IMG/VR virus record: IMGVR_UViG_2568526722_000002
Coordinates: 1-54,562 of that record
Strand: one strand, 5' to 3'
Source of the DNA: a virus
Lineage: Duplodnaviria > Heunggongvirae > Uroviricota > Caudoviricetes
DNA: 54,562 bases
Shown here: piece after piece, positions 945-46,742 of the stretch
Position numbering within the stretch: the stretch's first letter is position 1
Layout of the letters: each line of letters begins with the position of its first letter
Made by a program: the position numbers and the translations under genes
Notes under the pieces: generated by a model
What the model saw: the letters and a program-made list of their open reading frames with translations, nothing else
What the model was told of the DNA's origin: nothing
Databases searched by the model: none

Positions 945-3011
945 TTATTCCTCTGGGTAAGCTGAGCTAATCAAGGTATCTTCCTGCATACGATTAATAT
1001 GTGATGTTGTCCTTTCATCAATAACTTTCCCATCAAGTACCGTCTGAGTTGTGATATTGATTGTCTGAGGCTGAATATTTACTGACGGCTTGATAAGCTT
1101 TAAATCTTGTGTGAATGTTTCCACTCGACCTTTCAGATTATTTAATGCTTCAGGTGAAAACTGTGGAACATCTTTTGATTTGCCCTGAACCATAGCCCAT
1201 AAAACAGTGGCTAAAGAGTTCATGTCACCAGTTAATGCTTGGTCTGTGGGTTCCACCTTTGACCTTACAACTTTATCAATTGGATTATCTGACTTACTCA
1301 TCTGACGTTCATAGAACGGTTTGACAATGGCATTAATCACATCAGTTGCCATACCGATAATCACTACTTTGGTAATTGCATCAGCTACAGATAATTTTCC
1401 TTTACCACCTTCAACACTACCGGAACGTGAATTAATTCTTCCTGCTGCTGTATTTGCTACATTTCCAAGCGTGGAAATAGCCCTAATTAAGTTCCAGATA
1501 CCACCTACAGCACCAATACCAGACCTTACAGCGACAATACCAGCAAGTCCCTTTAATGCACTTAACAGGCCATTTGCGATACCATCAGCTACAGCTTTTT
1601 GAGTGTCATTTAATTCTCTGTAAGCAAGGGTCACTCTGTCAAAGAATCCCTGCACTCGGTAGCTAATCGTGGTTAAATCATCAATACCGTTTGACATGCT
1701 TTTCATCAAGTCGCCAAAATGTTCACCAAGATTTTTAGCTTGACCACCCAGTGAATTAAGTAAATTAGTCAGTGACCTTGTAAAGTCTGTTAAACCTTCC
1801 TGTGAACCATCGAACATTAAGGCCAGATTATTATTCCATGAATTACTTAAGCGGCCTAACTGCGTCTGAGTAGAGTTAATAATCTTTTCCCATCCACCAG
1901 CTTTATCAATCATCCTTCCCATTTCAGCGGATACTTTAGGGAGAACATCTTTAGAAAGAACCTTACCGTCTTTCATGGCCTTGTCTAATTCTTCTGTAGT
2001 CATCCCAAGGCTTCTGGCAAATAACTGGAAAGCACCTGCCATTCTGTCACCTAATTGACCACGTAGCTCTTCAGCCTGAATCTTCCCTTTAGAAGCCATC
2101 TGCTCGAAAGCTTTCAGAATCCCGTTAATTTCATCAGTACTTAAACCCATTAATCTGGATGTGCCAATCACATTAGAAAATAGGGATTCTTTCTGGTCTG
2201 TATTCATATCACCAGCACCAGCGGAAAACTTAGCAAAACTGCTTAATGTTTCAATCTGGTCTACACCTGTATTATTAGCAAGATTCTTAACGAAGTCTGT
2301 AGCTCGTTTAGCGCCTTCATCGCCTAATACAAATTGTGCCGCTCGTTGTGATGCTTCTTTTTTCAGACCAACCTCCATAATCTTCCTATAAGCTTCTAAG
2401 GCTGTCTGAAAACTATAAATGGCTGTACCTGCTTTGATTGCACTTGTAGCTAATACATCTAAACCATTTGAAGCATTTTCACTGTGATTGTTTTTGCTGG
2501 TGGTCTTATTAAACTTAGAAAGTGTTTCACGTAGATTTTGATTTAACTTTGCTAACTCACGATTAAAAGCTTCGTTCCCAAGTGTCTTGGATTTACCGCT
2601 TAAGCTGTAATACTGGCTTCTAAAATACTTCTCAAGTAGAGGATTAAAGTCACGAAGCTTGCTCATATTCACGCTATGCGCTGCTGTGATTGCTCTGTTT
2701 CCGCTAATTCGTGGCTGTCTTGGCTGTCTAAGTGGCTTTAAAGTATCCTCAATTTCAGTTTTAATCTTAAACGCTTTAGTGTTTTTAAGACGCTGCTCAA
2801 TCTTGGAAACAGTCTTATCGACATTTCTTTCCATGACCTTGAGAGAATCATTTAAAGGCGTAGGGTTAACTCTGAATGCCTTATTTAGTCGTTTCTCAAT
2901 TCTTGATGCGATTTGCATCGTTTGTTTCTCGGCTTTTTCCAAGCCTTTTAAAACTTTCTGAGAGTTAAAACTTAACTCAATCAGAAAATCATCAACTTTA
3001 AACTGTGCCAT
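945..3011 (-). CDS. tail tape-measure-like protein
   Basis: 688-aa, largely helical ORF. Its core segment ...ELRGQLGDRMAGAFQLFARSLGMTTEELDKAMKDGKV... is typical of tape-measure proteins. The C-terminal third is Gly/Ala-rich and hydrophobic. Confidence 0.75.
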   Translation of the reverse strand: MAQFKVDDFLIELSFNSQKVLKGLEKAEKQTMQIASRIEKRLNKAFRVNPTPLNDSLKVMERNVDKTVSKIEQRLKNTKAFKIKTEIEDTLKPLRQPRQPRISGNRAITAAHSVNMSKLRDFNPLLEKYFRSQYYSLSGKSKTLGNEAFNRELAKLNQNLRETLSKFNKTTSKNNHSENASNGLDVLATSAIKAGTAIYSFQTALEAYRKIMEVGLKKEASQRAAQFVLGDEGAKRATDFVKNLANNTGVDQIETLSSFAKFSAGAGDMNTDQKESLFSNVIGTSRLMGLSTDEINGILKAFEQMASKGKIQAEELRGQLGDRMAGAFQLFARSLGMTTEELDKAMKDGKVLSKDVLPKVSAEMGRMIDKAGGWEKIINSTQTQLGRLSNSWNNNLALMFDGSQEGLTDFTRSLTNLLNSLGGQAKNLGEHFGDLMKSMSNGIDDLTTISYRVQGFFDRVTLAYRELNDTQKAVADGIANGLLSALKGLAGIVAVRSGIGAVGGIWNLIRAISTLGNVANTAAGRINSRSGSVEGGKGKLSVADAITKVVIIGMATDVINAIVKPFYERQMSKSDNPIDKVVRSKVEPTDQALTGDMNSLATVLWAMVQGKSKDVPQFSPEALNNLKGRVETFTQDLKLIKPSVNIQPQTINITTQTVLDGKVIDERTTSHINRMQEDTLISSAYPEE

Positions 3012-3136
3012 TGTTCATATTTCACCTCATAGACTTCGGATAGAAGACTATCTCATATACAAAAAAGGGAGAAACTACCGATATCACTCGATAATCTCTC
3101 CCGTTGATTTTTACCCAACCAATTCTATTAGAAGCT

Positions 3137-3346
3137 TTAATGGTAAACGTAAGAATACATCCCATCATCACCTAAAATCTGTGCGTCACATGGTAATTTA
3201 TCCAAGCACCATGAAGGAATCTTACGTACCTTTGGTTTGTGTGAGGTGATAACTCGACGTTGATTTCCAGTTCGTAGCTTTGGTTTGGTTTGTAACTTTA
3301 AGTTTTCACAAACAGACCGAATAGTCTCTAAACGTTCTTCAAACAT
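3137..3346 (-). CDS. hypothetical small basic protein
   Basis: 69-aa ORF with GAGGTG Shine-Dalgarno upstream of the ATG. Confidence 0.5.
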   Translation of the reverse strand: MFEERLETIRSVCENLKLQTKPKLRTGNQRRVITSHKPKVRKIPSWCLDKLPCDAQILGDDGMYSYVYH

Positions 3347-3368
3347 TAATCACCTCACATATGCATAA

Positions 3369-4073
3369 TTAAATAACCTTACTAAATTCTCGTGGAACAC
3401 TCAAAAAGTCATTGAAGCTACTAATCTGTGCAAGCTCTTGTTTGTATTCCTTAGCGATTTTTTGATGGTCACGAATCAAATTAGCCAGAGTTGATTTCAC
3501 CAAATTAATCTCGGTTTCTCTTACCTTCATCAGTCGCTTTCTAGCCATTTCTTCAAGCTCAGCTTGTGATTTATCAGAAATAATTAAAGTCAGTTTATGT
3601 GGCGCTCTGACAGCTCTTTCTGTACGAACAACTCTTTGGCCTTCTGGTAAATCTGCAATCACTTTACCAATTTCTGAATGGTCATATCCCCAACCGTCAC
3701 GGTCTAGTCTTGTATAATAATCGTAGGTGTTTGTCTGAAGCTCCATCAAAATAGCCATTTCGTCAACTTCATTTTCAAGTTTGGACTGAAGTTTTTCGTA
3801 AACACGATTCATAGCTTTTTGAGAGTCTCGAAGGTCTTTGAAATATTTGCGTTGCAGCTTCAGTTTCAAATCAAGCTCACATTCCTCATTCATCGAAAAA
3901 TCAATTTCAACTCTTGGAATCTCAAATGGTTCTGGTGGAATATATGGACCTTTATTTACTTCGTGTGATTCCCGCCAAGCTCTATCAAAAGATTCACGCA
4001 AAGTTAATTCGTGAATATCAAGTGCACTTGGTCGGCTTTCAATAATCATTTCATTTTCATCACGGATAGCCAT
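3369..4073 (-). CDS. hypothetical coiled-coil protein
   Basis: 234-aa ORF with GAGGAAAGG SD and charged heptad-like sequence. Confidence 0.6.
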   Translation of the reverse strand: MAIRDENEMIIESRPSALDIHELTLRESFDRAWRESHEVNKGPYIPPEPFEIPRVEIDFSMNEECELDLKLKLQRKYFKDLRDSQKAMNRVYEKLQSKLENEVDEMAILMELQTNTYDYYTRLDRDGWGYDHSEIGKVIADLPEGQRVVRTERAVRAPHKLTLIISDKSQAELEEMARKRLMKVRETEINLVKSTLANLIRDHQKIAKEYKQELAQISSFNDFLSVPREFSKVI

Positions 4074-5914: not shown

Positions 5915-6466
5915 TTAAAATTCCTCCAAAATATACGGGTCAAACTCAAAGTCTGGTTCACTGGTCGTAAGGCTAATATTGCCCACTTCCACATGATGAT
6001 TGATTGTCTCGATAACTTTATTGCAAATGGTGGCTAAGTTAGCGCAATATTTATCGCTTGGTAGCTCATGGCTTAATCGGGTCGCTTGACGCTGAAGACA
6101 ATTTGTTATTGTGCTTGAGCTAATTTTGTCAATATTTCGTAATAGATAGAAAACTTTCCGGTGATAATTATCCCTTCCAAGACTGCGACAAGTACCGATA
6201 ATTATATCTTCAATTTTTGATGGTAATTGCTCGTAAGAATCAAAGCTCATCAGGAAAGTCTTTAAAGTGTTCTCTTTTTCTTTGCGTGTTGGCATGTGTC
6301 TTACCCGTGGCGTAATGCTACGAATGACCGCTTCAATGTTTCTACGTTCGGATTTGGTAAAGGCTGGGACTTCGTAGCTGGTGGGGGTGTCTGTGTAGCT
6401 GTAACCGTTGTGTCTGTTGCGTCTCTTGGATTCTTCAAGAAACTTTTGAAATTCTCTGTCGTTCAT
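5915..6466 (-). CDS. hypothetical early protein
   Basis: 183-aa ORF, the first gene downstream of the strong minus-strand promoter at 6518-6546. Confidence 0.6.
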   Translation of the reverse strand: MNDREFQKFLEESKRRNRHNGYSYTDTPTSYEVPAFTKSERRNIEAVIRSITPRVRHMPTRKEKENTLKTFLMSFDSYEQLPSKIEDIIIGTCRSLGRDNYHRKVFYLLRNIDKISSSTITNCLQRQATRLSHELPSDKYCANLATICNKVIETINHHVEVGNISLTTSEPDFEFDPYILEEF

Positions 6467-10777: not shown

Positions 10778-10896
10778 GCGGCAAAACGGGATGTGGGAAC
10801 AGGGGAAAATCAGATACCGGATATGGCTTTTTTTGCCAGTGGTGATGGATGGATGAAATTACCCAACGGTAAAATCCTGCAATATGGTCGAGGTGC
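10769..10896 (+). pseudogene. tail-fibre variable-tip fragment (both ends missing)
   Basis: ...[30 protein letters not shown] is typical of invertible tail-fibre C-terminal segments. The frame runs straight into yecD sequence at ~10897. Confidence 0.6.
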
Positions 10897-11120
10897 GGTT
10901 ACGCCGCCGAGGTATCGATACAATTGTGTTATGTGGGATCTCGACCAATATCGGTGTTGAATCCACCGCCCGCAATGCCTGGGAACTTGGCTTTAATCTG
11001 GTGATTGCCGAAGACGCCTGTAGTGCCGCCAGCGCCGAGCAACACAATAACAGCATTAATCATATCTACCCGCGCATCGCCCGTGTGCGTAGCGTGGAAG
11101 AGATCCTTCACGCGTTATGA
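10897..11120 (+). pseudogene. yecD: yecD (isochorismatase-family) 3' fragment
   Basis: [72 protein letters not shown] matches the C-terminus of E. coli YecD from memory. The N-terminal ~115 codons are absent. Confidence 0.75.
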
Positions 11121-11383: not shown

Positions 11384-11701
11384 CTAAACAACCGCGTTAT
11401 CTTGGCGAACATCGCAGATAGTAAACGTCACGACCCCGATGACAGTGACATCGTCCAGGGCCTCACCTTCAATCGCTTCGCCGTCTTCAGTAATCAGCGA
11501 ACGCCCTCTCAACGTGGCAAGTTCGGTCCCGCCGCCGTGCTGGATAAGAACCTGGCTTCCCTGCTTTGGCTTCAGGGAGATATCCAGCACAACATAACCG
11601 CCATCCCTTTCGAAAACGCGGGTGTTCGGCCCGACATTGCATATCGAGTTAACGGACAGTCGCTGCTCGACGTAGTCGGACGCCGGTGAAGGAAATCCCA
11701 T
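11384..11701 (-). CDS. UmuD'-like / S24 C-terminal-domain-like protein lacking the Ser-Lys dyad
   Basis: Starts MGFPSPASDYVEQRLSVN (compare UmuD' GFPSPAADYVEQRIDLN). The positions equivalent to SGDSM and the catalytic K read ERDGG and ELATL. Its ATG overlaps the upstream TAA (TAATG). Confidence 0.6.
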   Translation of the reverse strand: MGFPSPASDYVEQRLSVNSICNVGPNTRVFERDGGYVVLDISLKPKQGSQVLIQHGGGTELATLRGRSLITEDGEAIEGEALDDVTVIGVVTFTICDVRQDNAVV

Positions 11702-11940
11702 TACAGAACCCTCCCCATGTTGGCCATCATCCACAAACGGTTTTCGCTATGGTCGGTGGTTTTGTCGACAAAGTACGTCTGCTCTCTAGATATCCACGCA
11801 TTAGCCTCTGAGTCGGTAAAGTGCAGCCCACGCCGGCGCAGCGCTGACACAAAATCCTTTGTGTGCAGGTACTGGTAGCCTTTGGAGTTGCGCAATACCG
11901 ACTCGCGGAATGCCTGATTGATGTCTGACTGACGGTGCAT
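11701..11940 (-). CDS. 79-aa SOS-controlled protein (candidate antirepressor)
   Basis: MHRQSDINQAF..., with GGAGGCA SD. A LexA box lies 18 nt upstream of the start. Confidence 0.55.
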   Translation of the reverse strand: MHRQSDINQAFRESVLRNSKGYQYLHTKDFVSALRRRGLHFTDSEANAWISREQTYFVDKTTDHSENRLWMMANMGRVL

Positions 11941-11957
11941 GATCTGCCTCCGATTGA

Positions 11958-11977
11958 TACTGTTTTTATATACAGCA
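11958..11977. promoter_or_regulatory. LexA (SOS) box
   Basis: TACTGTTTTTATATACAGCA fits CTGT-N8-ACAG. Confidence 0.8.
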
Positions 11978-12075
11978 GTTTCATCAAAGAGTCGGATCAA
12001 TACTTGATGATGACTTTGTTTTATCTTCCGGTAGCCTCTTAAATTGCTTTTCACACAAATAATTGATATCAATAC

Positions 12076-39942: not shown

Positions 39943-40152
39943 TCACCCCCAGACCTTTTGTCGAAAGGTTCTTGGTGTACGCGCCGGATGCTCGCATTCA
40001 GGCAATTTTGCGCTGATAGTCCAGGTGATGTTGTCGCGATTCAGGCTACGTTCTACCGTGGCGCCACGACGACGGTAACTGGCCACCAGCTCGTCGGCCT
40101 GATCGGTTGTGCATTCGTGATGGTGGAACCAGGAATATTTCATCGCCATCAC
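39943..40152 (-). CDS. hypothetical Nin-region protein
   Basis: 69-aa ORF tightly packed between its neighbours. Confidence 0.45.
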   Translation of the reverse strand: MMAMKYSWFHHHECTTDQADELVASYRRRGATVERSLNRDNITWTISAKLPECEHPARTPRTFRQKVWG

Positions 40153-40748
40153 CCCGCAAAGCTCATGAGCTGCGATGCGGCGTTTTCCGCTTCACGCTGG
40201 TCCTTGAATGCCCGGGACAATACCCAGCGCCACAGAACATCGAGCGCGGCTTTGTACAGCTGCTGGAACTCGGTTTCGTCCATGTTGGCAAAGGCAATGC
40301 TGCGGGGGTGTTTGCGAAGGGTGCCGTCGGGAAGCTGTATGGCGTCGTAGTGGCCAGACTCGATGATCACCCATGCACGATATGCGTCATAGGATTTGCA
40401 GATGCTGATACTACCGGCGCGCTTATCGGCGATGCGGTCCAGATATTGCTCAGCAGCATCCAGGAGTGCTGCTTCACTTCCCGCGAATGAGGCAAGGAAC
40501 TTGGCATAGCCGGTTACCAGCTTGCGTTCGTTGGAGGAGATTGCCCCGCCGGTGGGTTCCCAGTATTCGAAACCGAGATTGAGTAACGCGAAGAAACGAC
40601 GGTGAAAGGCCGGGTTGCGTACCTGCCGGAACTCAGCCACCAGTACGGAGCCGAGTTTGATTTTTGATTGCAGTAAATCACTGGTCTCCGGCGTAGCGGG
40701 GATCAGGATTCCTGAGGAATGCTTGATGAGTTGTAGTTCGTGCGCCAT
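40149..40748 (-). CDS. DUF1367-like Nin-region protein
   Basis: 199 aa. ...FRQVRNPAFHRRFFALLNLGFEYWEP... pattern. Confidence 0.6.
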   Translation of the reverse strand: MAHELQLIKHSSGILIPATPETSDLLQSKIKLGSVLVAEFRQVRNPAFHRRFFALLNLGFEYWEPTGGAISSNERKLVTGYAKFLASFAGSEAALLDAAEQYLDRIADKRAGSISICKSYDAYRAWVIIESGHYDAIQLPDGTLRKHPRSIAFANMDETEFQQLYKAALDVLWRWVLSRAFKDQREAENAASQLMSFAG

Positions 40749-40782
40749 GGTTTCTCTCCGTGGCGCAGTAGGTTACGGTTGT

Positions 40783-41031
40783 TCAGACCGTTGATTTCAT
40801 ATTATCAGAAGGTGGGGTTACCCGGTAGCCGAGACGGTGAATAAACTGCATAAAACCATTAGGAGTAAAGACCTCTTCATCATCCAGCAAAGGCCGCATA
40901 GAAACCATGCCATTGACGCGATAAATTAGATGCCTGCCCGATGAAGGAAAGCTAAACACCACGCAGCCGTCAGACCTTCTTACAATGTCATACCAGTTGT
41001 CTTCTGACGTTTGCAAAGCTGAATCACTCAC
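40783..41031 (-). CDS. 82-aa protein downstream of the dinI-like gene (candidate antirepressor)
   Basis: GTG start with GGGAGA SD. Same transcription unit as the SOS-box dinI-like gene. Confidence 0.5.
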   Translation of the reverse strand: MSDSALQTSEDNWYDIVRRSDGCVVFSFPSSGRHLIYRVNGMVSMRPLLDDEEVFTPNGFMQFIHRLGYRVTPPSDNMKSTV

Positions 41032-41148
41032 ATTTATGTTCTCCCTTCGAGCGACTAACAGACGCGATTAAAGATTGTCGGCAGCAGCATCAGAGGGTTA
41101 CGCAAATTGCGGTATTCTGAAAAATGCGCGCCAGCCTTAAGCGCAATT

Positions 41149-41382
41149 CTAATAAAACCAGTCGTCAGCGCTTTCCCAGGTATCCTGGAGGATTGATTCA
41201 ATTTTCTTTTTATCGTCCTTGTCACCACCAAAAACACTTAACCCATCGGCCCCGGCACGGCGGATTGTGAGCCTGCAATTGTCATAGTGATCATTCAGGC
41301 GCTTAAGCAGTTCTTTCTCCAATGCTGGTACTGCGCCTTTAGGAAGTTCTTTCATGCGATCAATGGTTAATTCAACTTTCAT
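41149..41382 (-). CDS. DinI-like protein
   Basis: MKVELTIDRMKELPKGAVPALEKELLKRL...KKKIESILQDTWESADDWFY parallels E. coli DinI (...RISEILQETWESADDWF). Confidence 0.85.
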   Translation of the reverse strand: MKVELTIDRMKELPKGAVPALEKELLKRLNDHYDNCRLTIRRAGADGLSVFGGDKDDKKKIESILQDTWESADDWFY

Positions 41383-41400
41383 AATGGCCCCCATTGCATG

Positions 41401-41420
41401 TACTGTGTTTTTATACAGTA
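41401..41420. promoter_or_regulatory. LexA (SOS) box
   Basis: TACTGTGTTTTTATACAGTA has perfect CTGT-N8-ACAG ends. It lies 19 nt upstream of the dinI-like start. Confidence 0.85.
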
Positions 41421-44910: not shown

Positions 44911-45297
44911 ATGAAAGAGAAAACCGTACTTAATCCGATACTTGTCGAACGCCTTTCAGAGCTGAACGGGCGCGGTATGACCAAATCCGATATGGCCAGG
45001 GTTGCTGGGGTAACCCCGCAGTCTGTGAACGGCTGGTTTAAAAAAGGCGTGATCAGCAAGAAATCAGCTCTCGCTGTCGCTGACGCAGCTGGCGTGTCTG
45101 TGCCTTGGTTACTCGGTGAGGATGTCGGCGAGAAGGACGGACTTAAGCCGGACGAACAGCGCCTGCTTGAGCTCTACCGCCAGCTGCCAGAAGAAGAGCA
45201 ACAGAACATGCTCCGCATCTTTTCGATACGTCTTAAGGAACTGGATGAGCTGTATGAGAAGTACATGAAGGGGCGGATTCGCTCGCAGGGGGACTGA
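44911..45297 (+). CDS. CI-like repressor, HTH_XRE, without an S24 autocleavage domain
   Basis: 128 aa. ...MTKSDMARVAGVTPQSVNGWFKKGVISKKSALAVADAAGVSVPWLL.... It has a short helical C-terminus and no Ala-Gly / Ser...Lys signature. Confidence 0.8.
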   Translation: MKEKTVLNPILVERLSELNGRGMTKSDMARVAGVTPQSVNGWFKKGVISKKSALAVADAAGVSVPWLLGEDVGEKDGLKPDEQRLLELYRQLPEEEQQNMLRIFSIRLKELDELYEKYMKGRIRSQGD

Positions 45298-45437: not shown

Positions 45438-46742
45438 ATGACAGCTGAGATTGTTGTAATAAATAATACTGGAATCGCCCTTGCTGCTGACTCTGCAGTC
45501 ACCACAGAGCATAATAGATTAGTAAAAATAAATAATAGTGCGGAAAAACTATTCGAACTATCTAAACACCATCCCGTGGGGATCATGATTTATAATAATG
45601 CGACACTGGGTGGCGCACCGTGGGAACTTATAATTAAATCCTATAGAAAACAATTGGGGAAAACTAGTTTCCCTACCATTAAAGAATATGTTAATGACTT
45701 TGTAAAATTCATCAATGGTAACTCAGACCTTATAACAAATGAAATGAGAGAGGCTTGCGTTATAAACCTTGTTGTTGATAACCTCAAAGGTTTGATGAGA
45801 TACATTAATGATAATAATGTAGTAAACTATTTAACAATGAACCCCGCCGTTGAACTCGACAATGTTATTTTTCAAAACATAGTTAAGCAAGCCTTTGATT
45901 TAGAGATAGGAATCTTAAGGAATAATCTCTTTTTCGAAGGGTTTGATACAGAAGAGTTTAATGATGCTTTAGCATATATACAAGATTTAATATCGCCATA
46001 CATTTCATCAATTATTGTTCTTGATAACTGTGAAAATATACAGCAAGAGCTTATGGAAAAAGTCATATTATATTCCACTTGTTTAATTTTCAAAGTCCAT
46101 GCTAGTCGTACATATTCAGGGATTGTTATAACAGGTTATGGAGAGGAAGAATATTACCCTTCCATTTGCACTCTTCATATCTACGGCATTTTTAAAAACA
46201 AATTGATGATCCATAATATTGATGATAAATCCCATAATGAGGTAACCAATATGGGGTTTGTTATACCATTTGCTCAAGAAGATGAAGTAGTAACTTTCAT
46301 TGATGGGTGCAACCCTAACATCATTAATTTTAACAGAACTCTTACAGAGGAAGTTTTTGATCGGCTTAATCATTATGTTTCTAGCAATATTTTCCCTGCA
46401 ATGAACAATGGAGTACTAGCCAATCACTTCTCCAGTGAAATTGAGGAACTCAAAAACGTACTTTTACAAGATCACGATACTAAACTTGAAAGCTATATTG
46501 TTAATAACCATACAAATAAAATGATATCGATGTTGCAATCACTTGGGAAGGCAGATCTTGCGTATATGGCCGAATCATTAGTGAACATCACTGCATTCAA
46601 AAGAAAAGTATCACATGATTATGAAACTGTCGGTGGGCCTGTTGATGTCGCTGTGATATCAAAAGTTGATGGATTTGTTTGGGTAAATCGTAAACACTAC
46701 TTCCCTAAAGAGCTAAACTCTAACTACTTTAATCGTCAATAA
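45438..46742 (+). CDS. proteasome-beta/HslV-like Ntn-hydrolase homologue with large insertions (434 aa)
   Basis: N-terminus M-TAEIVVINNTGIALAADSAVT...SAEKLFEL and C-terminus ETVGGPVDVAVISKVDGFVWV mirror 20S beta TTTVGI..AVIMATERRVT...GKKLFQI and [21 protein letters not shown]. The gene is AT-rich. Confidence 0.6.
   Translation: MTAEIVVINNTGIALAADSAVTTEHNRLVKINNSAEKLFELSKHHPVGIMIYNNATLGGAPWELIIKSYRKQLGKTSFPTIKEYVNDFVKFINGNSDLITNEMREACVINLVVDNLKGLMRYINDNNVVNYLTMNPAVELDNVIFQNIVKQAFDLEIGILRNNLFFEGFDTEEFNDALAYIQDLISPYISSIIVLDNCENIQQELMEKVILYSTCLIFKVHASRTYSGIVITGYGEEEYYPSICTLHIYGIFKNKLMIHNIDDKSHNEVTNMGFVIPFAQEDEVVTFIDGCNPNIINFNRTLTEEVFDRLNHYVSSNIFPAMNNGVLANHFSSEIEELKNVLLQDHDTKLESYIVNNHTNKMISMLQSLGKADLAYMAESLVNITAFKRKVSHDYETVGGPVDVAVISKVDGFVWVNRKHYFPKELNSNYFNRQ

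Follow-up and report, generated by a model that had tools for sequence, protein, structure and literature searches.

A predicted LexA-controlled gene pair of enterobacterial prophages encodes a 79-residue protein and a putative reduced, dyad-less relative of phage P1 HumD

Introduction

What might an SOS-controlled pair of small genes do for a prophage, when one of its products resembles processed UmuD' and has lost the residues of the protease? The question is raised by a stretch of 54,562 nucleotides (nt) from a virus of the Caudoviricetes (IMG/VR record IMGVR_UViG_2568526722_000002, positions 1 to 54,562), which we refer to as the window. At positions 11384-11977 it carries a LexA (SOS) box and two open reading frames (ORFs), ORF79 and ORF105, named after the lengths of their products. 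A preliminary description, made from the sequence, had called this module unusual and had suggested that it might serve as the antirepressor system for the 128-residue repressor of the prophage. Here we report that ORF105 appears to be a reduced, protease-dead offshoot of the P1 HumD lineage ('mini-HumD'), that the pair is widespread, and that the module is probably not the induction switch of this prophage.

Results

Architecture and LexA control of the module

The module was read from the sequence and lies on the minus strand, with the following elements.

11995-12000, minus strand: -35-like hexamer TTGATC; in nearly all of 48 aligned homologous loci this hexamer or a close variant stands about 17 nt ahead of TACTGT, the opening hexamer of the LexA box
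11958-11977, minus strand: LexA (SOS) box TGCTGTATATAAAAACAGTA, with 3 mismatches to the 20-mer consensus
11947-11951, minus strand: Shine-Dalgarno sequence GGAGG of ORF79, 6 nt before the ATG at 11940
11701-11940, minus strand: ORF79, a 79-residue protein of phrog_3893 (function unassigned), with its ATG at 11940 and its TAA at 11703-11701
11384-11701, minus strand: ORF105, the putative 'mini-HumD', a dyad-less, pre-truncated UmuD'/HumD-like protein matching phrog_3469 over its full length and translationally coupled to ORF79

The first half of the box, TGCTGT (11977-11972), is at the same time a -10-like hexamer. Read on the plus strand, the box is the TACTGTTTTTATATACAGCA that had been described before; it is indeed present, and its distance to the ATG of ORF79 is 17 nt and not 18 nt, which is the only correction to the coordinates and sequence statements made for this locus. 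The proposed coupling of the two genes through TAATG was confirmed, as the ATG of ORF105 (11701-11699) and the TAA of ORF79 have one base in common, and a GGAGG lies 8 nt upstream of ORF105.

At the level of three mismatches, two LexA matches were found in the 54.5 kilobases (kb) of the window, compared to 0.00 expected from 100 shuffles. We then compared homologous loci. A scan of genomes, limited to one per species, gave 50 loci from about 25 enterobacterial genera, and the ORF79 homologue is full-length in 41 of these; with phage loci added, 48 upstream regions were available for comparison. The box was found in 46 of these, with the core CTGT-N8-ACAG located 32-41 nt before the start codon; within the genomic set this applies to approximately 38 of the 41 loci. 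The consensus over all loci is TACTGTATATAAAAACAGTA, and TTGATC precedes it at a fixed distance. The conserved promoter is TTGATC-N17-TACTGT, with its -10 hexamer (TACTGT) inside the operator, so that a 20-base-pair box overlaps the promoter as in the LexA (SOS) regulon. A generic scan for σ70 promoters and terminators gave no promoter upstream of ORF79, because the -10 hexamer of the window is the weaker TGCTGT; it was recognized through comparative alignment alone. Since the box stands out statistically in the window, and since box and -35 hexamer are kept in 46 of 48 loci from about 25 genera, LexA control of the module, which had been proposed from the window alone, is strongly supported by this comparative evidence; the LexA site annotated at P1 humD agrees with it.

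ORF105 resembles a shortened HumD without the catalytic dyad

ORF105 begins with MGFPSPASDYVEQR, as in cleaved UmuD'. In a BLASTP comparison, residues 2-40 aligned to residues 25-63 of E. coli UmuD with 17 of 39 positions identical (44%, E 2e-10), and the alignment begins at Gly25, the first residue of cleaved UmuD'. Within the N-terminal arm and helix, 13 of 17 residues are identical to UmuD 25-41. The UmuD-type arm GFPSPAxDYxEQR, located directly after the cleavage site, is thus present, and it is invariant in the ORF105 family. As Gly follows the initiator Met, the specificity of methionine aminopeptidase predicts that the Met is removed. The mature N-terminus (GFPSPA...) would equal that of RecA-cleaved UmuD'.

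When ORF105 was aligned with UmuD, P1 HumD and their relatives using MAFFT, two clean deletions became apparent, one of the 11-12-residue loop with Ser60 and one of a 13-residue hairpin. The Ser60 segment ASGDSMIDGGIS is deleted in ORF105, and opposite Lys97 of UmuD it has Ala, or Leu when a shift of two residues is allowed. The Ser60-Lys97 dyad is absent. What ORF105 keeps of UmuD is the arm and helix at the N-terminus and, at the C-terminus, the xGVV strand. In addition, ORF105 has a C-terminal tail (I-x-D-x-R...D..PV[IV]) in common with HumD and not with UmuD; this tail, the lack of a pro-peptide and the upstream LexA box are the features of a HumD-type protein.

The AlphaFold2 model of ORF105 (mean predicted local distance difference test score, pLDDT, 68.5; core 73-87) has the predicted β-fold of S24 proteins. 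Searching it against the PDB with Foldseek, we found that 23 of the top 24 matches were UmuD', UmuD-RecA, or the C-terminal domains of LexA or CI, with template modelling (TM) scores of 0.45-0.60, probabilities up to 1.00 and E-values of only 0.009-0.5. The closest neighbours were UmuD', LexA C-terminal domains and 8gmt, the complex of UmuD with the RecA filament (TM 0.55-0.60).

At the level of families, ORF105 matched phrog_3469, labelled 'UmuD-like', over its full length (E 7e-47), and its best NCBIfam match was HumD. An ORF79 homologue followed by a full-length HumD orthologue of 123-129 residues was found in coliphage HK140 and in the genomic loci L022 (E. hormaechei), L027 (C. murliniae) and L049 (Salmonella), where the HumD orthologue lies just downstream of position 6237. 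Taken together, the best NCBIfam match, the common C-terminal tail, the two clean deletions and the pairing of ORF79 with HumD in relatives argue that ORF105 is a reduced, protease-dead offshoot of the P1 HumD lineage. At the Ser60 position the full-length orthologues of L022, L027 and L049 have T, S and T, and at the Lys97 position K, K and L, so that the dyad appears to be already eroding within the full-length HumD lineage. What the preliminary description had said of this protein has therefore stood up well: the start resembles processed UmuD', the dyad is lost, the predicted fold is S24-like, and the comparison with P1 HumD was apt, ORF105 being apparently a shortened member of that lineage.

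ORF79 is a conserved protein of nearly constant length

ORF79 matched phrog_3893 over its full length (E 4e-40). An exhaustive search yielded just 82 representatives at 50% identity, nearly all of about 79 residues and with identities down to about 31%, which follow the pattern M-x-R-x-S-D-I..A-F...T-x-D-F...A-N-x-W-I...N-R-x-W-x-L-x-N-M-G-R-V. In the predicted structure, a helix, a β-hairpin and two further helices lead into a C-terminal tail (NRLWxxxNMGRV), which is highly conserved and modelled with low confidence. An invariant tail that is modelled as disordered fits a partner-binding peptide. A sequence search of the PDB gave nothing meaningful for ORF79, PADLOC reported no defence-system match for ORF79 or ORF105, and an Rfam search of 10-13 kb returned no family.

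We considered several candidates as relatives of ORF79. A DinI- or ImpC-like protein was ruled out, as ORF79 had no DinI match in PHROGs, NCBIfam or Pfam; unlike ORF79, the true dinI of the window matches phrog_189. The P1 protein Lxr was rejected as well: it is 190 residues long, is transcribed divergently from humD, with which it has an annotated LexA site in common, and shows no significant similarity to ORF79. Finally, BLASTP and hhalign were negative for a relationship to GftA of Gifsy-2 or to an 82-residue ORF of the window described below.

Two phage annotations are worth recording here. In Erwinia phage Midgardsormr38, the ORF79 homologue gp33 (L060, 3001-3243) is publicly labelled 'DNA polymerase V', which is supported by nothing beyond its UmuD-like neighbour. 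In Klebsiella phage vB_VIPKPNMC05 (L064, 1929-2653), a different 79-residue hypothetical gene lies between a tail fibre gene and a 130-residue UmuD-like gene whose 3' end is ORF105-like; the 79-residue gene may encode a partner that has diverged, or an alternative one.

The gene pair is widespread among enterobacterial prophages

In the protein collection, clustering at 90% identity gave 343 clusters for ORF79 and 722 for ORF105, mostly from Klebsiella and E. coli, with single ORF105 clusters of up to 3,207 members. Mean column identity in the two alignments was 89-90%, with 34 invariant columns for ORF79 and 48 for ORF105. In approximately 35 of the 41 genomic loci, the gene following the ORF79 homologue overlaps it by one base and starts with MGFPSPA, and its product usually has 104-107 residues. 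More than 40 loci from about 25 enterobacterial genera show this box, promoter and gene pair. Among 5,426 complete E. coli genomes, 147 carry the module, and in Klebsiella it is abundant; its usual position is between tail-fibre genes and the attachment (att) site or integrase. Frameshifted or truncated copies are occasional (L010, L008, L046). The pair is therefore common rather than rare in prophages of Klebsiella, Enterobacter and E. coli, and PHROGs already holds a 'UmuD-like' label for the second gene, so that 'unusual' was an overstatement.

In three phages and six genomic loci, a divergent dinI starts from the same LexA-box intergenic region as the ORF79 homologue.

Phage HK140 (L063), 1080-2060: divergent dinI and ORF79 homologue
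Phage HK225 (L059), 3162-3800: divergent dinI and ORF79 homologue
Phage Eeyore (L058), 2638-3560: divergent dinI and ORF79 homologue
Genomic loci L022, L025, L029, L030, L036 and L045: divergent dinI and ORF79 homologue

This dinI subgroup of phages has a three-gene SOS cluster of DinI, an ORF79 homologue and a HumD-like protein.

Discussion

A possible action on the RecA*/Pol V axis

Our tentative preference, held at somewhat less than even confidence, is that the module is a LexA-repressed accessory operon that acts on RecA* or on UmuC-UmuD and is not an induction switch. It would be an operon of the 'moron' type, which temperate phages of enterobacteria carry at their tail-fibre/att end. 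In an undamaged lysogen, LexA would occupy the box overlapping the -10 hexamer of the TTGATC-N17-TACTGT promoter, and the operon would be silent. Upon DNA damage, RecA*-induced cleavage of LexA would derepress the promoter, as the conserved architecture suggests. ORF79 and ORF105 would be co-translated, and the overlap of their stop and start codons suggests that they act together, probably as a complex, with ORF79 as a lineage-specific partner or adaptor. ORF105 would be made already 'activated', with no pro-peptide to lose. Because the protease loop and the general base are lost, it should neither cleave nor be cleaved and would work only through binding, presumably to the partners of UmuD' and HumD. 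The likeliest targets would be the SOS-mutagenesis and RecA* machinery of the host (UmuC, UmuD/UmuD' and the RecA filament), since ORF105 has kept the UmuD'-specific arm and helix at its N-terminus, the strand near its C-terminus and the tail of HumD type, and P1 HumD provides a precedent. In this way, the operon would adjust RecA* activity or translesion synthesis while the prophage is being induced.

HumD reportedly complements UmuD', a result ascribed to McLenigan et al. in 1999, and a note in the P1 record states that HumD substitutes for UmuD'. Residues F26 and P29 of UmuD contact RecA in the complex solved by cryo-electron microscopy (PMC9926225), and the arm with these two residues is conserved in ORF105. 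The axis of RecA* and DNA polymerase V (Pol V) is preferred because HumD replaces UmuD', because the module is repeatedly linked to dinI, and because the F26/P29 arm is kept.

Several observations weigh against this proposal. The match of ORF105 to the HumD equivalog NF051876 reaches 45.1 bits compared to a cutoff of 120, and Pfam Peptidase_S24 (PF00717) gave no match to ORF105 even at E<=1, a family whose threshold is passed by P1 HumD and HK140 gp28. ORF105 is also 24 residues shorter than HumD. As these residues are lost and the HumD and S24 cutoffs are failed, a UmuD'-like activity of ORF105 should not be assumed. The residues Y52, D91, E93 and F94, through which UmuD contacts RecA, are unconserved in the MAFFT alignment. 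Downstream of ORF105 we found a yecD fragment and then the prophage end; umuC is absent there, and none is linked to the module. Both protein models are of moderate confidence (pLDDT 68-70) with poorly modelled conserved termini, and ORF79 has no recognizable fold relatives. Moreover, homologues of ORF79 occur without any UmuD-like gene in HK225 and in the Rahnella prophage locus L051, and ORF79 may for this reason have an independent function. The literature that we searched contained no paper specific to the ORF79-ORF105 gene pair.

A narrower possibility, which we regard as unlikely, is that ORF105 together with ORF79 binds the groove of the RecA filament as UmuD, LexA and DinI do, with no part for UmuC, and thereby modulates coprotease activity, for example by delaying the cleavage of UmuD or LexA or by stabilizing filaments. 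One set of groove elements is bound by UmuD, LexA, λ CI and DinI alike (PMC9926225), 8gmt, the complex of UmuD with RecA, ranks among the structures that best match the ORF105 model, the RecA-touching arm residues F and P are invariant in ORF105, and the repeated linkage to phage dinI points in the same direction. However, UmuD binds L2 and the basic patch of RecA through a hydrophobic pocket and an acidic patch, and the residues concerned (Y52, F94, D91 and E93) are unconserved in the alignment; F18, which is also part of the pocket, sits in the missing pro-peptide.

Quite improbable in our view is the broader idea that ORF79 and mini-HumD represent an unrecognized class of SOS-timed effectors acting purely by mimicry. 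Here, RecA* filaments would be occupied by the dead, pre-'cleaved' S24 domain and its 79-residue adaptor, or else the two would take up the sites at which S24 proteins (UmuD, LexA or the CI of co-resident phages) receive a substrate or dimerize. If true, the pair would set the timing or the hierarchy of mutagenesis and prophage induction in polylysogens.

The prophage has a Gifsy-type operon of its own

The role that had been proposed for the module, inactivation of the prophage repressor, starts from a correct observation. The 128-residue repressor (44911-45297) has a helix-turn-helix and no S24 cleavage domain, as the Pfam scan agrees, and it is homologous to the Gifsy-2 repressor. On this account the LexA-controlled ORF79 would inactivate the non-cleavable DicA/Gifsy-type repressor, and the mini-UmuD' would be an accessory like DinI in the Gifsy and 186 operons. 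ORF79 has the small size and the LexA control that this requires. Known antirepressors adjoin a RecA-filament binder, Tum being a fusion of antirepressor and DinI and Gifsy having dinI-gfoA (PMC3121763), and dinI adjoins the ORF79 homologues of HK140 and HK225. A further case is a prophage of Rahnella perminowiae (L051, 5944-7368), in which a homologue with 38% identity to ORF79, preceded by a LexA box of its own and accompanied by no UmuD-like gene, lies in the nin region, approximately 530 nt upstream of an irsA/DUF1367 homologue and hence in the slot of the Gifsy antirepressor. For the ORF79 family itself, this placement is the only observation favouring an antirepressor-like role.

We nevertheless consider this explanation decidedly unlikely, because the window contains a second SOS operon that is better suited to the task. 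It consists of the following elements.

41401-41420, minus strand: LexA box TACTGTATAAAAACACAGTA (coding strand), near-perfect and better than that of the module, located after a terminator-like hairpin and a TTGATC-N17-TATACT promoter
41394/41382-41149, minus strand: dinI homologue, phrog_189
41031-40783, minus strand: 82-residue ORF, phrog_340 (function unassigned)
40748-40149, minus strand: IrsA/DUF1367 homologue of 199 residues, 83% identical to Gifsy-2 STM1020 (irsA homologue)

This operon (LexA box-dinI-82-residue ORF-irsA, 40149-41420, minus strand) is syntenic with dinI-gftA-irsA of Gifsy-2. The Gifsy dinI-antirepressor-irsA operon drives the induction of phages with non-cleavable repressors (Lemire et al. 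2011, PMC3121763). The phages with a homologue of the 82-residue protein and those with a homologue of the 128-residue repressor are the same nine (mEp237, SEN34, SW-37, PHB10, ST846-OXA48phi9.2, ST974-OXA48phi18.2, Chris1, SPN3UB and FSL SP-016), and the identities are broadly parallel. ORF79 homologues were found in 47 phage records, which include none of the nine. Homology of the 82-residue protein to GftA of Gifsy-2 was undetectable, so that its assignment as the likely cognate antirepressor of the 128-residue repressor is based on synteny and co-occurrence.

The repressors of other ORF79 carriers point the same way. All five other phages or prophages have a CI with a Pfam Peptidase_S24 domain (JNQH498, 236 residues; RothC, 231; ST16-OXA48phi5.2, 210; HK140, 238; HK225, 257), and no co-occurrence of the module with repressors lacking the cleavage domain was seen among them. 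Nor does ORF79 resemble a known antirepressor, as BLASTP and hhalign against GftA were negative, it is not similar to the 82-residue protein, and its PHROG family is unassigned; this comparison covered GftA of Gifsy-2 and the 82-residue protein, and Tum and AntC were not compared directly.

The mosaic structure of the prophage adds to this picture. The part with the late genes and the module (10899-35263) shares 99% identity with a myovirus-type prophage of E. coli JNQH498, whose early region differs, and the mosaic junction lies at about 35263. The early region of the window (35.3-54.5 kb) is Gifsy/Rac/HK225-like, with RecE/RecT, the DicA-like repressor and a YdaT-domain protein, and matches E. 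coli NCTC 13148, in which it is integrated next to kch/yciI. The module is linked to the late region, which has been swapped here independently of the immunity region. It travels with the late/tail region and is not tied to non-cleavable repressors. Because the window has a separate Gifsy-type LexA-dinI-82-residue ORF-irsA operon at 41.4-40.1 kb, the module is probably not the induction switch of this prophage.

The left end of the prophage has a composite structure. Its segment 10004-10785 shares 96% identity with the DNA invertase and attP core (yciI site) of phage HK225, and at 10890-11120 there is the 3' portion of the bacterial gene yecD, which the prophage carries between its invertase and the module. 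The yecD piece looks like a footprint of the origin of the late region in a prophage integrated at yecD, for example the one of JNQH498. A third match to CTGT-N8-ACAG (46028-46043) lies inside a 434-residue ORF (45438-46742) just downstream of the repressor gene and is probably due to chance, as 0.49 such cores are expected per window.

It is very improbable that ORF105 is a dominant-negative S24 decoy, which would form heterodimers with LexA or with the CI of its own or a competing phage and so weaken DNA binding or alter cleavage. S24 C-terminal domains are dimerization modules, those of LexA and CI are structural neighbours of the ORF105 model, and the module is found mostly in phages with S24 CI repressors; the signature of ORF105 (GFPSPAxDYxEQR arm and HumD tail), however, is UmuD/HumD-like and neither CI- nor LexA-like. 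That ORF105 is a functionless, decaying humD pseudogene with ORF79 as an unrelated hitch-hiker is scarcely credible, since, despite the loss of the catalytic residues and two segments and the occasional frameshifted or truncated copies, the length of 104-107 residues, a high cross-genus similarity, 48 invariant columns, the start overlap and the LexA promoter are conserved and clusters have thousands of members.

Significance

Phage-borne, LexA-controlled homologues of UmuD' are known from P1 HumD; the searched literature contained no paper on the shortened, dyad-less form or on its constant 79-residue partner, which, as far as that literature shows, has never been described. The module is present in thousands of genomes of Klebsiella, Enterobacter and E. 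coli and is predicted to be switched on when the SOS response is set off by antibiotics, quinolones for example. If the pair enhances or blocks Pol V mutagenesis, or alters RecA* activity, it would affect the supply of mutations and prophage induction in clinical lysogens, and would thus be relevant to mutagenesis and induction in clinical Enterobacteriaceae. For the prophage itself, the regulatory picture is corrected, in that the non-cleavable repressor appears to have its own Gifsy-type LexA-dinI-antirepressor operon.

Comparison with known systems

The Gifsy dinI-antirepressor-irsA operon, Tum of phage 186 and AntC of N15 are, like the module, small LexA-repressed phage genes outside the immunity region, and they too are paired with a RecA-filament-binding protein (PMC3121763). 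In contrast to them, ORF79 has no sequence similarity to GftA of Gifsy-2 or to the 82-residue protein, and the phage records with ORF79 carry no homologue of the 128-residue non-cleavable repressor.

In the plasmid operon impCAB, which is regulated by LexA, a small gene for ImpC (about 80 residues) lies directly upstream of a UmuD homologue. ImpC is DinI-like, ImpA is a full, cleavable UmuD homologue, and the umuC-like impB follows. ORF79 differs from ImpC in having no DinI match in PHROGs or NCBIfam.

The host UmuD/UmuD' (umuDC, Pol V) has the arm and helix, the xGVV strand motif, the S24-like predicted fold and LexA regulation in common with ORF105. Unlike host UmuD, ORF105 has no pro-peptide or cleavage site, no Ser60/Lys97 and no downstream umuC; it is phage-borne and is preceded by the 79-residue gene.

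The closest known system is P1 HumD with its orthologues N15 gp26, phiKO2 gp23 and HK140 gp28. HumD has 129 residues, lies above the Pfam S24 threshold and carries Ser and Lys at the dyad positions, whereas ORF105 has 105 residues and neither of the two; the divergent partner of humD, Lxr, is unrelated to ORF79. Like ORF105, P1 HumD is a phage UmuD' homologue without a pro-peptide, with an MGFPSPA start, an upstream LexA site and no linked umuC, and both proteins have the same type of C-terminal tail. Finally, in HK140 and three genomic loci an ORF79 homologue is located directly upstream of the HumD orthologue, just as ORF79 is located upstream of ORF105.

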